The notes: a model not told the origin generated them from the sequence alone. Counted from the first letter of the stretch, positions 7,834-61,522 are shown. The stretch is DNA of 64,000 nucleotides from Eledone cirrhosa (GCA_964016885.1 OZ024752.1:15190001-15254000); one strand, 5' to 3'. Translations and numbers: made by a program.

Positions 7834-8155
7834 AAATAACAGGAGGCTGGACTGGTGTAATTCCTTGAAAGGTTTATTATACCATCATCATTTCAATGAC
7901 CGGGTTCAGTATGAATCCGGTGATATTATCAGGTATTCAAAATATAACAAAGGAATATAACAGATAAAATCCATGGGGCTGAAAATCAGAGACAAGAGGA
8001 CGACCGACTATTTAGCAGCTTCTACCTCAGTCGGCCGCCCTCGAGTATTTTGAATACCTGATGATATCACGGATTCATACTGAACCCGGTCATTGAAATG
8101 ATCATGGTATAATAAACCTTTCAAGGATTTACACCAGTCCAGCCTCCTGTTATTT
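7834..8155. repeat. Inverted repeat (~110-bp arms) carrying degenerate hammerhead motifs
   Basis: 7834-7944 is the reverse complement of 8046-8155, with few mismatches. Flanked by TA tracts. Confidence 0.85.
8054..8110 (+). ncRNA. Hammerhead-like motif (non-canonical G at the cleavage position)
   Basis: atac CTGATGA [stem II cggattca-tac-tgaacccg] GAAA TGATCA TG gtat. Confidence 0.45.
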
Positions 8156-8385
8156 GATAATAATTAACTCCGTACTCGCACCACCAACTACGCAAACGAA
8201 GACGGGTGAGTTGCATTACGTTGAGTGCTCTCCATAATATTACATCGAGATTAACCATACGGAATAACCAGTTCTATCCAATGGTGAACCAACAAACCTA
8301 AATATATATATATATATATATAAAATATTAAACAAATAATGAATAAAACAATGAAACAGTTCCTTATATTAAACAAAAAAAGTTC

Positions 8386-8534
8386 ATTATTTAACGATCG
8401 TTTCTAGGATATATATGTGTTAGAATTGGCATGCATATTCAACAGATCTATGTACAAAATTATACAAAATTATACAAACTATCAAGATTAAATATACATA
8501 CCAAACACACATATATGCCGTCTTCAGAAATAAT
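8386..8534 (-). ncRNA. Type I hammerhead ribozyme with a ~115-nt extended stem II
   Basis: Minus strand: attattt CTGAAGA [long G-U-rich hairpin] GAAA CGATCG TT aaataat. Stem I is a perfect 7 bp and is enclosed by a further ~50-bp perfect IR (8322-8373/8534-8585). Confidence 0.7.
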
Positions 8535-9094
8535 TTAATATAAGGAACTGTTTCATTGTTTTATTCATTATTTGTTTAATATTTTATCTTGACTCTGTAT
8601 TCCGTTTATCTTTCACCGAAAGTGATTTTTCATTACATCTCTTCTTTCCATGATATCCGGAATACATTGAGTTCTTCATACGGATTGGACACTACCGTAA
8701 ACTCTTGGTAGATTTATCTACATATATATATATATATATATATATATATAGTAATAATAATAAATGTGAATACTAAAATCTGTAGAGGGCTCGATAAGGA
8801 TGATATATATATAAAAATATATAAAAACCATAGAGCAAATATTTATTAAAATAACAGATTAGAGTTTAAGCAAAGAATCGCTGATTTCACCCATAACGGG
8901 ATCTCATGAAACTCATGAGTTTAAAAATATCCCGTTAATGGTGACAGCAGTGATTCATTGCTTAAACTTTAATCTGTTATTGTTATATATATATAGATAT
9001 AGATACACAATGAGATAATATGGTTTGTTGATTATTCAACAAAGTTAATTTTACAACAGATTAGAAGCACTCTATAAAATTTATCTGGAGTATC

Positions 9095-9395
9095 ATTAAT
9101 ATTAATAATATTAATAAAATGAAAATATCTTTATAAACCATATTTATTTTATTATACGTATTTCAGGTTTAACATTATCATCATTAACATATATCCCTTG
9201 AGTTTTGAACCTTTCATTTCACTATCTTCATTGGACTTATACCATTAAGTTCACATGAAGATATGTCACTATCTTAACACCAAATATTATATTTACCTGA
9301 CAAAAGCATACTTAAATATTAGTACCCTTGAAATAAGTATAATAAAATAAATATGGATTTATAAATATATTTTCCATTTATTAATATTATTAATA
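9095..9395. repeat. Inverted repeat with a degenerate HHR (9290-9348, +) of the GAAATACGTATA family
   Basis: Arms ~9095-9165 and ~9328-9395. The right arm has CTGACAA..GAAATAAGTATAataaaataaatatgg, the same 3' flank as the HHRs at 20874 and 55488. Confidence 0.65.
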
Positions 9396-9449
9396 TATAC
9401 ATATACACATATATATATATATATATAATTTTATTTCAATTTTTTTCTG

Positions 9450-57336: not shown

Positions 57337-59083
57337 TATGTGTATATATGTGTATATATATGTATATATATAATATATATGTATATGTATATATATGTGT
57401 ATATATATGTATATATATAATATATATGTATATATATATATATATGTATATATATGTGTATATATATGTATATATATAATATATATGTATATATATATAT
57501 GTATATATATCTGTATATATATGTATATATATATATGTATATATATGTGTATATATAATATATATGTATATATATATATATGTATATATAATATATATGT
57601 ATATGTATATATATGTGTATATATAATATATATGTATATATATATATATATGTATATATAATATATATGTATATGTATATATATGTGTATATATAATATA
57701 TATGTATATATAATATATATGTATATATATATATATGTATATATATGTGTATATATATAATATATATGTATATATATATATGTATATATATATGTGTATA
57801 TATATATGTATATATATATATGTATATATATGTGTATGTATATATATATAATATATATGTATATATATGTGTATGTATATATATGTGTATGTATATATAT
57901 ATATGTATATATATGTGCATGTATATATATAATATATATGTATATAGATATATGTATATATATATGTGTATGTATATATATATTTATATATATATGTATA
58001 TATATAATATATTTCTTTAATGAAATATATACAAAGGACATTAATCATTATTGCAAGTTATATTCTAGGTTCTTCTTAATTTTTAACATGTCACCTCCGT
58101 AACTTTGTGAGTTTACACTCCTTAAAATTATCCCCCGTGATTGTTTGATGTGCCTATTACATATATATATATGTGTATATATATATATACGTGTGTGTGT
58201 TTGTATATATTTATTATATATATATGGTTATGTGTATGTAGTTACGTATATGCGTGCGTATACTTTTGTATATATGGGTTATTATGTGTGTATGGATTTA
58301 CGTATGGTTTTTGTATGCGTGTGTTGATTTTATTACGTGCGTGTGTGCGGGCAGGCATTTGTTTACGTATGTTCGTAGGTTATGAACCTATGCTCTTTAT
58401 TGTAGACCTTTATGTGTATGTATGTGTATGTGGATGTGTGTATAATATGGTTGTATACATGTTTTTATATATACGTGTATGTGCGTGTGGTTGTGTATGT
58501 GTATATTTATTTTTGCAAGCATGTGTATGTGTGTGTACGTATGTTTATTTTATATTTTTATGTATTAATATATATATATACACACACACACATGCATGTG
58601 TGCGCGTTTTTATACGTGTGTATGAGGTTCTATGCATGTATATGTGTGTGTGTGTATGCGTATATTTATGTATATATATTTGTATATGCACATCTCGTGA
58701 ATATGTTTGTTTTTAAGTTGTTTTATTCCCCCTACTCCTTCACACCCTCATACTTATCGCTGTCAATATGCCTCCCTTTTTCCTTTGTTGTTGACTTTGT
58801 ATATTTGTTGTTCTTATTCATTTATTTATTTATTACTTCATGTATATGTATTTATGTTAATGTCTGTCAACGCGTATGTGATAAAGTATACGTCTTCGTA
58901 CCTTTTAAGTATATGTGCGTGGTTTAGTGTGTCTGCTTACGTTCTGGATATTTATTGTTTTTTATATGTATTTATATATTGGTTCTACTCTTCTTTTTGT
59001 TCGTTTGTTTCTCAGCCTCACTTTCATATTTATTAAATATTTTTGTTTTCAAATCCATATTTAATAAAAGCACCATGTTTTTA

Positions 59084-59144
59084 TTCATTCTAATGACTGA
59101 AAACAGATAAAATATCTGCTTTCAAGAAACCACTGGTAAATGAA
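59084..59144 (+). ncRNA. Hammerhead motif with one core substitution
   Basis: ttcatt CTAATGA c tgaaaacagata-aaa-tatctgctttca a GAAA CCACTGG TA aatgaa. Confidence 0.6.
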
Positions 59145-59488
59145 ATAATTATCTTAAGTTGTTTATTAAGCTCTGTAGCCTACATAGAGCACTCTTTTTT
59201 CCTGTATCTCTCCGACGCAATTACTTCATTTATATATATATATATATATATATATATATATATATATATATATATTTATATTTATTTATTTATTTATCAG
59301 CGGTTTTTATATATTTGAAATATATTTATCCTTATCGAGTCCTCTTTGGATTTTAGTCTTCAAATTTATTATTATTCCTATATATATATATATATATATA
59401 TATATATATATATATATCGATTTATTTTTATTGAAAGCTATATGTATTTATTTATGTTTATGTATAATTTTATATATATATATAAGTA

Positions 59489-60222
59489 TATAAGTATGTA
59501 TACGTACATACATATATGTATACAGACCTACAGTAGTATATATATACATATATGTACGTATTGATTTACCGGACATTTATTATAATGCTCGGTTTGTTTG
59601 TAAACAAACATCCCGAATTAAGCCGTACAGTGTTTAGCAACCATCGTTGCCCATTTGTTCAACAGCGACAAAGGAACGATGTACTAGTTTCAAGCTTATT
59701 AGCTATCGTCAGCACCGTATACCTTCCTGCCAGATGTAACAGCCGTACTAAGAGTGAGAAATGAAATTTCGTTTCATTTTTTCCATTTATCGTTTACGGT
59801 GCGCCCGGCCGATTAACTCACTCAATATGCAAATTAGTCTGCTCAGCCGTTAATATGCATAAGGAAAGTATATACTTTCAGTCGTTCAATCATCTGGCAG
59901 GAAGGTATACGGTGCTGACGATAGCTAATAAGCTGGAAACTAGTACATCGTTCCTTTGTCAGTGTTGAACAAAAGGGCAACGATGGTTGCTAAACACTGT
60001 ACCGCTTAATTCAGGATGTTTGTTTACAAACACACCGAGCATTATAAAAAATGTTCGGTAAATCCATACGTACATATATATATATGTGTGCATGTATGTA
60101 TATATATATACATACTACTGTGCGTCTGTATGCATATATGTATGTACGTATACATACTTATATTTAAGTAACAGCCGTACTAAGAGTGAGAAATGAAATT
60201 TCGTTTCATTTTTTCCATTTAT
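59489..60222. repeat. Inverted repeat (59489-59736 / 59891-60162) plus a 54-bp direct repeat (59737-59790 / 60169-60222)
   Basis: Seen directly. Each arm carries an HHR. Confidence 0.88.
59909..59951 (+). ncRNA. Minimal type I hammerhead ribozyme (mirror copy at 59676-59718, minus strand)
   Basis: acggtg CTGACGA t agct-aata-agct g GAAA CTAG TA catcgt. Intact core; stem I extension ggcaggaagg/cctttgtc. Confidence 0.88.
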
Positions 60223-61108
60223 ATATATATTTATATTTATATATGTTTTTATATTCATATATATAATTTTATATATGTATTTATATTTAAATATGTATTT
60301 GTATATGTATTTATATATGTATATTTATATATGTATATGTATTTATATATTTATATTTACTACCAAAATTAGATTGAAGATGCCATATCTGAGAATAACA
60401 GCAGCATGCGCTATACCACTTGTGGAATAAGCTAAAAAGTTCCTAGTAGTAAATCCTAGCATTTATATTCAATTAAAATTCGAATGGCATATATATAATA
60501 TAATCACATCAAACAATTGACGGGGATAATTTGTAAAGAGTGCAAACACATAGTTACGGATGTAATATATTAAAAAGTAACGAGAACCTTGAATATAGAT
60601 AACTTGCAATACTGATTAATCTCCTTTGTATATATTTCGCTGAAGAAATGTTTTACCATTAATTAGTGAATCATAGACGTAAAATCTTGTATCATCGGTG
60701 TTGGAGAATATTTAACTTCTTTCGGGGGTGTGTGCGAGCCCCCAAAACGCCTCCTCCCTATTGAGGACTTTATTGTTGATTTTATATTTGTTATTTGTTT
60801 TCTTTACTCGCCTTTTTGTGTAAAATCCCCCCTTGTATTTGTCCCCTTCTTTTGCGCCCTCGTGGCAATAAATAGAAATATATCTATGATTACACACTAA
60901 AAGCAAATCAGGGAAATAACGACGAAAAGCACGTGTGGTTTTAAAATGACGCAATGTATTATTATAAATACATATATAAAATTATATATATAAATATAAC
61001 ACATTGCGTCGCCGTCAACCCAATGCCGTGAATAGGGTTATCAACAGCTAGAAATAGTAGCCGAGTCCTTTTGTATATTCATATACATTTATATATATAT
61101 ATATATAT

Positions 61109-61522
61109 ATAATATAAGATCAAAAGATGGTTAAAGGAGTTCCATGTATTTTATTATGCGCATTTCAAAAACAAACATCATCATCCAATAATATTTGTGT
61201 TTTCATCAGATAAAACAGGAGCACATGATATGAAGGCTAAAAAACACTTGTGGATAGTGCAGTTTTAAATCAACATATCAACTGCACTATCCACAAGTGT
61301 TTTTTAGCCTTCATATCATATTCTCCTGTTTTATCTGATGAAAACACAAATATTATTGCACGATGATGTTTGTTTTTGAAATGCGCATAATAAAATACAT
61401 GGAACTCCTTTAACCATCTTTTGATCTTATATTATGTATACTCCAGTCCTACAAACTGTAGAGTGCTTCTTATCCGATATCTGCATTGCTTTATTGTACT
61501 ACAATAAAACTCACCTCCTACA
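61109..61522. repeat. Palindromic HHR element between TA tracts
   Basis: 61109-61263 pairs with 61279-61434. The right arm extends to 61522. Confidence 0.9.
61327..61397 (+). ncRNA. Type I hammerhead ribozyme (mirror copy at 61147-61217, minus strand)
   Basis: tgttttat CTGATGA aaacacaaatattattgcacgatgatgtttgttttt GAAA TGCGCA TA ataaaata. Confidence 0.82.

Follow-up and report, generated by a model that had tools for sequence, protein, structure and literature searches.

Head-to-head pairs of hammerhead-bearing Penelope-like insertions in Eledone cirrhosa as probable products of two coupled target-primed reverse transcriptions

Inverted pairs in the window

The window analysed here is a stretch of 64,000 nucleotides from the 3.0-Gb genome of Eledone cirrhosa (GCA_964016885.1 OZ024752.1:15190001-15254000; G000:C12:15190001-15254000 in our locus list), with a GC content of 36% and abundant (TA)n. 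It contains inverted pairs of Penelope-like element (PLE) sequences with hammerhead ribozyme motifs or their remnants, nine of which had been listed in a preliminary description as fold-back inserts beginning at 7834, 9095, 18108, 21037, 25702, 54601, 55222, 59489 and 61109 (pairs 1 to 9), always with the left arm on the minus strand, the right arm on the plus strand, the 5' ends fused centrally and the 3' ends facing TA flanks. Self-comparison of the window and reading of the sequence recovered all nine near these positions, and the left-minus/right-plus arrangement holds for each of them, though the evidence for orientation varies in strength.

Hammerheads were scanned for as CTGANGA, GAAA, a palindromic stem III, a cleavage triplet and a paired stem I (minimal type I), while an Rfam search of the window returned no hammerhead at the gathering score. 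Orientation by the hammerhead or its remnant is direct for four of the nine pairs (18108, 55222, 59489 and 61109), in which both arms contain an intact type I motif, whereas the other five lean on relatives, a partial core or a remnant. Pairs 9095 and 21037 are oriented through relatives with an intact motif, and pair 7834 through one such relative (L042), judged by eye. Pair 25702 conserves the CTGACGA-stem-GAAA core, lacks a standard cleavage triplet and has a 3' end in common with a PLE bearing an open reading frame (ORF) at 50865, while pair 54601, with a remnant only (relatives L095 and L123), is the weakest case. The TA flanks stood in part: each pair has a simple repeat at one of the ends first assigned to it, which is (GA)n rather than TA on the left of pair 21037, whereas the other end had been placed short of a tail. 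The tail is the stretch of one arm that continues past the 3' end of the other arm, so that tailed arms end at an outer point and tailless arms at an inner point.

Pair 1 comprises a tailless left arm (7830–8045, minus), whose 5' reach exceeds that of the right arm by about 100 nt, and a right arm (8046–8306, plus) with a hammerhead remnant (core from 8058) and a tail (8160–8306) followed by TA; the arms are 96.5% identical over 114 nt aligned. Pair 2 (9006–9396; 94.0% over 67 nt) is old, with an unaligned centre, a tailed left arm on the minus strand (tail about 9006–9098) and a tailless right arm on the plus strand. Pair 3 has 4.8 identical 310-nt hammerhead units in its left arm (18108–19590, minus), which ends at unit position 29–34 or thereabouts, and 1.19 units in its right arm (19585–19954, plus; hammerhead 19759–19789), which ends at unit position 60; the arms overlap centrally by 6 nt and are 100% identical over 370 nt. 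Pair 4 (21038–21845; 86.9% over 244 nt) consists of a tailless left arm on the minus strand from 21038, a right arm on the plus strand (21496–21845; tail 21773–21845) and a centre of 211 nt assigned to neither arm. Pair 5 (25702–26267; 95.4% over 259 nt) has a tailless left arm (25702–25954, minus) and a tailed right arm (25955–26267, plus; tail 26221–26267).

Pair 6 (94.9% over 117 nt) is composed of a left arm (54588–55865, minus) broken by TA runs and by pair 7 (55064–55712), a tailless right arm of 117 nt (55865–55981, plus) and a detached left-arm tail (52625–52757, minus) that ends at TA, as positions 1767–1946 of relative L095 match 52775–52600. The tail is split off from the remainder of the arm by a 1.8-kb insertion (52758–54587), which begins with TC, ends with a GC-rich hairpin then CTAG, lies between A and T, and resembles a Helitron-type element. 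The nesting is serial, with pair 7 in a TA run of pair 6, and the pair 6 tail ending in a TA run within an older PLE (region 52556–52757). Pair 7 (100% over 185 nt) has a tailed left arm (55135–55406, minus; tail 55135–55221; hammerhead 55321–55272) and a tailless right arm (55411–55595, plus; hammerhead 55496–55545) on either side of a 4-nt centre. Pair 8 (94.8% over 249 nt) joins a tailless left arm (59488–59736, minus; hammerhead 59712–59682) to a right arm (59737–60222, plus; hammerhead 59915–59945; tail 60164–60222) that is a partial tandem of a unit of about 430 nt plus 55 nt. In pair 9 (96.9% over 161 nt), the tailless left arm (61109–61279, minus; hammerhead 61209–61155) reaches the fixed 5' point of its family with one non-parental base, and the right arm (61280–61521, plus; hammerhead 61335–61389) has an 86-nt tail (61436–61521) and then TA.

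Two further head-to-head pairs, absent from the earlier list, lie at 8320–8720 and 8751–8992. The former, oriented by intact motifs, has a tailless left arm (8320–8542, minus; hammerhead 8527–8393) and a right arm (8534–8720, plus) that begins 3' of the hammerhead and carries a tail (8588–8720), with a central overlap of 9 nt. The latter has a tailed left arm (8751–8915) and a tailless right arm (8916–8992), oriented on the weak basis of a degenerate motif and the tail only. The segment 8320–8587 was considered as a counter-example of opposite polarity and dropped, as relatives show a head-to-head structure with a short tailed right arm. An unlisted inverted pair (58005–58173 and 60488–60655), 80% alike, 2.3 kb apart and without a detected hammerhead, would be tail-to-tail if relative L034 sets its orientation; it is probably two separate old insertions.

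Identity of the elements

The arms had been taken for PLE pseudo-long terminal repeats (pLTRs), which agrees with their hammerhead, tail and layout and, in the pair 9 family, with a PLE ORF; the other eight pairs are assigned by hammerhead, tail and layout, and pair 5 also by the 3' end shared with 50865. The pair 9 family has 7,321 exact 31-mer matches in the genome. On the hammerhead strand, its long pair L218 has an open frame of 821 aa, in which, judged by motifs, a reverse transcriptase (RT) is followed by a C-terminal GIY-YIG endonuclease in a single ORF, with the YRDD and LIY..YFG motifs kept in nine relatives. The frame has the motif set of the Hydra clade, namely RWT (RWK in six of the nine relatives), DKT, a CxCX5C linker, and CxxC and CxH around the last conserved residues, and in the alignment the cysteine pair (CCHH) is absent inside the GIY-YIG core, as the definition of that clade requires. 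Pfam gave no match for this frame and no relevant family for six relatives, comparison of the frame with solved structures gave no significant match, and BLASTP against the RT fragment of the window gave nothing significant. The family is identified by its sequence motifs as an ORF-bearing Hydra-type PLE.

The tandem unit of this family measures about 3.66 kb, and five units stand in tandem at L247–L251 (G000:C6:38071239-38086092), where five full-length elements make a candidate source locus. In the tandem unit, the pLTR and tail continue directly into the ORF, which places the two end points within the transcript. The pLTR carries a type I hammerhead on the ORF strand, identified by motif; fold z-scores of eight hammerhead motifs are weak (-0.1 to -2.1). 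The family shows the inverted 5'-truncated copy and the one-sided tail of endonuclease-bearing PLEs.

The pair 3 family is a 310-nt non-coding tandem unit with a type I hammerhead in each copy and 4,226 exact hammerhead matches in a pattern search, and is classed from these sequence features as a retrozyme-like repeat. Head-to-head double arrays of 310- and 467-nt hammerhead units (window 18108–19954; L368–L375, L037–L038 and L129 among the loci) and a single-orientation array of about 480-nt units, also among these loci, were seen, with units 99.8–100% identical where compared. The arm lengths of the 310-nt family are independent and range from 0.65 to 10 units.

Polarity beyond the window

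Polarity was surveyed over 1,064,000 bases, made up of the window, 200 kb adjoining the window and 80 segments of 10 kb taken at round-number positions. This survey holds 118 hammerhead motifs, against 0 in the reversed-sequence control. Adjacent homologous intact motifs are head-to-head in 18 cases, tail-to-tail in none and tandem in 24, so the two inverted polarities are not equally frequent; without the window, the counts are 14 head-to-head and 0 tail-to-tail. Adjacent non-homologous motifs comprise 3 head-to-head, 9 tail-to-tail and 7 tandem cases, and an abundant unrelated control repeat (window 31780–32500 and 35263–38346) gave 15 head-to-head versus 23 tail-to-tail. Among the first 100 of the 31-mer matches of the pair 9 family, there are 34 head-to-head pairs, no tandems within 10 kb and one tail-to-tail pair, which lies between two separate palindromes, while nine of the first ten arrays of the pair 3 family run minus-then-plus, one is single-armed and none is reversed. 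A probe-based tally of 65 head-to-head and 6 tail-to-tail is secondary, since it counts the pairs of the window, draws in part on two probes that lack an intact hammerhead and may have counted some cases twice.

The polarity is thus real and above chance. In the text available, head-to-head is given as the most frequent PLE arrangement in PMC3846280, PLEs with an inverted 5'-truncated copy and a one-sided tail are described in PMC8557442, and hammerhead pairs on opposite strands 100–700 bp apart in PMC4209133. As head-to-head is already published as the PLE norm (PMC3846280), polarity alone is neither new nor decisive for mechanism.

One-sided tail

The informative feature is a one-sided tail, which the preliminary description overlooked. 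In all 11 window pairs, one arm is 26–150 nt longer at its 3' end than its partner. When pairs of the pair 9 family were chosen by a site common to both arms, 24 of 28 had one tailed and one tailless arm, the exceptions being two tailed/tailed, one tailless/tailless and one interrupted; two of the three like-ended exceptions lie within longer inverted stretches whose outer ends are out of view, and the end types of L221, L224, L228 and L234 were assigned by reading rather than by automatic arm chaining. In a sample anchored on the tail (the first 70 of 7,940 matches in this family), the partner is tailless in 45 cases, tailed in 3, of another kind in 3 and not in view in 19, where 45 versus 3 gives p=1e-10 against 50:50. 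The double arrays of the 310-nt family follow the same rule, as nine of nine end at unit position 29–34 on one arm and 58–65 on the other.

A bulged hairpin lies 4–8 nt past the end point at 7 of 14 family ends, compared with 110 of 5,000 random places (2.2%). It follows both end points in the pair 9 family, while among the 14 ends checked it is absent at those of pairs 3 and 8 and at three others. Two loci, L226 and L235, show inverted stretches reaching at least 600–700 bp past the pLTR on both sides, and in L235 these enter the element body.

Centres and the fixed 5' point

Microhomology, suggested earlier as something to look for at the centres, may account for some of them: centres differ between copies, and short overlaps of 1–9 nt occur beside brief stutters and filler derived from sequence close by. 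In the pair 9 family, whose arms range from less than 100 nt to 3.7 kb, 2,502 arms start at one base with a non-parental letter preceding it, and in 3,793 arms the parental C follows three non-G bases, these arms including loop-less palindromes with the same fixed 5' point as their start. Among the first 100 arms, the letter before this point is most often G (49), followed by T (39) and A (12). RTs add an extra G opposite the cap, and the fixed 5' point may correspond to a capped transcription start copied by the RT. The 310-nt family lacks a fixed 5' point, which would be expected if its template were circular.

At L008, L012, L028 and L262, short stutter repeats lie at the fixed 5' point or at start sites. 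They look as if the RT had copied the end of the template again, much as telomerase adds repeats. About 28 loci sharing one centre had hinted at a fixed palindromic master for pair 9, but this was traced to query bias, as unbiased sets were varied and contained only 54 exact copies.

Fold-back versus two primings

The preliminary description had read the polarity as a mechanistic signature of either cDNA fold-back or two priming events from both strands of a break; polarity itself does not separate the two, and what does is the extent of the arms. A fold-back copy cannot hold sequence that its template lacks, so arms without shared sequence, or longer at the 5' end, need two primings. In 8 of the 70 tail-anchored cases (L302, L304, L305, L308, L313, L319, L321 and L345), the tailed arm lies entirely 3' of the inner point and has no sequence in common with the inverted partner that abuts it. 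Among 38 short pairs, the tailless arm is longer at the 5' end in 19, the tailed arm in 2, and the two are within 20 nt of each other in 17; the tailless arm is also the longer in 8 long pairs, versus 2 with a longer tailed arm, and in 5 of the 9 double arrays of the 310-nt family. Fold-back alone is ruled out by the non-overlapping arms and by the tailless arms longer at the 5' end, which support two priming events from both strands; fold-back may have been an extra step where arms overlap. The 5' ends of tailed arms cluster at the inner point, where 10 fall within 25 nt and 11 within the 133 nt that follow (p=6e-4); a second primer located there on the same RNA would have this effect.

Divergence between arms is 0.7% within a locus compared with 3.7% between loci, so arms are closer to each other than to the family. 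Subfamily sites are concordant between arms in 93 cases and discordant in 2 (40 pairs), and locus-private variants are present in every unit of both arms at L369 and L370. The concordance and the low divergence point to a single template for both arms, as read from the finished copies. Two RNA templates had been considered because 15 of 50 loci had a site at which the arms differ, and were dropped since the variant has 27 copies versus 7,321 and occurs on either arm.

Proposed mechanism and alternatives

We propose, with a probability of roughly 70%, that each structure is one insertion of a PLE or of a non-coding follower, arising from a pair of coupled target-primed reverse transcriptions on one RNA. 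A dimer of the PLE protein would cut both strands of a (TA)n tract, whereupon the two target 3' ends would prime at different points, one using the outer and one the inner point, 26–150 nt apart on the RNA. Each cDNA would extend to the RNA 5' end, or around a circle in the 310-nt family, and the trailing cDNA would halt at or before the inner point or continue by displacement. The two cDNA 3' ends would then be joined via microhomology or a template jump and filled in, and many pair 9 arms stopping at the putative capped start would yield the common palindrome of about 430 bp.

Several points weigh against this proposal. The evidence comes entirely from finished insertions, with no intermediate observed, and (TA)n flanks make target-site duplications unreadable. 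Overlapping arms fit twin priming plus fold-back of the leading cDNA equally well, and the tailed arm is usually nested. Arm concordance may also be explained by later gene conversion or by subfamilies active at different times, and the pile-up site is AT-rich, so that microhomology alone may attract joints there. T rather than G precedes 39 of the 100 fixed-point arms, the capped start being read from the sequence, and tailed/tailed pairs occur (3 of 48 classified). In the available part of PMC11167929, the two strands are not reported to differ in their start sites in vitro, so the coupling is read from genomic copies and not from biochemistry. The detailed tests cover two families, whose copies were drawn from the first part of one contig.

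The most durable of the alternatives, which we regard as unlikely, is a hybrid in which both strands are primed and the tailed cDNA copies the tail only, while the leading cDNA folds back and then anneals to the tail cDNA. It would suit the nesting of the tailed arm within the 5' extent of the tailless arm (19 of 38 pairs versus 2), the tight centres of 4–15 nt in the window and the near identity of the arms, whereas the tailed arm is the longer in L218, L236 and 4 of the 9 double arrays. End-to-end joining of two cDNAs is the simpler account of loop-less centres that occur in two registers of one self-complementary end, and of filler found where both arms begin at the fixed point.

A hairpin DNA, self-primed on antisense RNA or formed by cDNA fold-back, given a staggered cut by the endonuclease and then integrated, would also leave a one-sided tail, and the two end points are indeed AT-rich and alike. 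Self-priming on an antisense template is proposed in the available text of PMC3846280, and a tail from endonuclease resolution in that of PMC8557442. This route is improbable, as it cannot yield the 8 of 70 arms without common sequence, the fixed sense-strand 5' point with a non-parental G suits a sense capped template, and the in vitro start sites coincide with the tail ends (PMC11167929, as far as available).

Still less credible is the view of the palindromes as self-contained elements, MITE-like (miniature inverted-repeat transposable elements) or hairpin RNAs, mobile as whole units. In its favour, one exact centre is found at 54 places, but these are a small fraction of thousands of arms, and in a query-biased sample of 18 loci this recurrent centre stands on 7 haplotypes of the tailed arm, 5 of them also found in other copies, while other centres are highly varied and arm lengths span the range given above. 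The earlier statement that these are not terminal inverted repeat or MITE structures is upheld by the asymmetric ends and by centres and arm lengths that differ per copy, and hairpins of this kind should in practice not be annotated as MITEs.

An artefact of assembly or library fold-back is very improbable: all units of the 18108 array are 100% identical, the length of such 310-nt arrays is taken from the assembly, and none of the reads and contigs listed bridges the window's own centres, but the arms of most pairs differ by 3–18%, ends are family-specific and asymmetric, polarity tracks the hammerhead strand, and raw reads of three other samples hold opposite-strand joints (4, 8 and 9 reads). 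In the pair 9 family, this joint links the 5' region to the inner point on opposite strands, with 2–3 starts per sample, and joints of the 8320 and 8839 families occur in the raw reads of one of the three samples; these joints stem from copies of the families and not demonstrably from the window locus. No empty site was found among the contigs and reads listed.

Relation to known systems and significance

In L1 twin priming, the RNA is primed internally by the second target strand and microhomology joins the cDNAs, giving occasional, non-overlapping inversions at chance sites. The tail-only arms, lying entirely 3' of the inner point, have the same geometry, whereas in the present elements twin priming is seemingly the rule, with fixed sites and often overlapping arms.

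The layout is known and ordinary for PLEs. Published insertion units of endonuclease-bearing PLEs, in the text available of PMC3846280 and PMC8557442, share the head-to-head inverted 5'-truncated copy, the tail at one end, partial tandems, palindromic centres and (TA)n targets, but their tails are 30–40 nt compared with 26–150 nt in E. cirrhosa. Here, in addition, the fixed 5' point, the tail-only class and the rule of one tail per pair have been counted over many copies, and these counts argue against the self-priming of PMC3846280. The Hydra clade of PLEs with a C-terminal GIY-YIG domain (PMC8557442, in part) matches in the motif set of L218, the hammerhead and the (TA)n targets; its unit is "generally <3 kb" there versus about 3.66 kb here, where placement is by motifs.

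A parallel in vitro is Poseidon_Ac, whose protein, according to the available part of PMC11167929, cleaves and extends both strands of an AT-rich target from two internal starts bounding the tail, is predicted to be a dimer and belongs to an element with a pLTR hammerhead. No start-site difference between strands is given in that part of the report, nor is the inverted arm traced there to priming from both strands, whereas the genomic data imply one site per strand. Animal non-LTR (long terminal repeat) retrozymes (PMC7229834; bioRxiv 10.64898/2026.07.22.740005; both as far as available) are likewise PLE-linked non-coding tandem units of about 300 nt with a type I hammerhead each, but the head-to-head double arrays with two fixed ends that make up 9 of our first 10 arrays are not described in the part of PMC7229834 available.

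The origin of inverted pLTRs and one-sided tails in PLEs is treated as an open problem in the available text of PMC8557442, while antisense self-priming is offered as an explanation in that of PMC3846280. No proposal that PLEs use coupled twin priming appeared in a literature search by titles and abstract openings, the scope of which excluded subscription articles and the supplements to PMC11167929 and PMC8557442, where relevant material may exist. What is added is quantitative evidence for coupled twin priming, consistent with the two starts and two-strand extension in vitro: thousands of young copies supply counts that exclude fold-back alone, together with direct predictions for the existing in vitro system.

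We lean slightly towards a wider proposal, in which twin priming would be obligate and programmed in Hydra-type PLEs, with one dimer, two cut strands and two hairpin-marked sites of a single RNA, so that a linear capped RNA would give inverted pLTRs and one tail, and a circular retrozyme RNA double arrays. If so, a small circular retrozyme RNA would give two simultaneous rolling-circle products, i.e. the head-to-head double arrays, and the inverted pLTR, the tail and retrozyme mobilisation would share one mechanism.

Other features of the window

A further tailed arm of the pair 9 family (45228–45900, minus; 5' limit approximate) continues into the 3' untranslated region of the element. The broken PLE at 50865–52556 (minus) matches GIY-YIG and RT weakly, and its 3' end contains a hammerhead-like core on the strand of the ORF. 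A fragment at 49668–50500 is like the N-terminus of the PLE clade of L218 and is interrupted by a short abundant repeat. Two broken LINE-like (long interspersed nuclear element) elements, with endonuclease- and RT-like reading frames, are located at 1101–5743 and 39802–41874. The control repeat of the polarity survey is short and very abundant, with 230 fragments per 1.06 Mb in both inverted arrangements.

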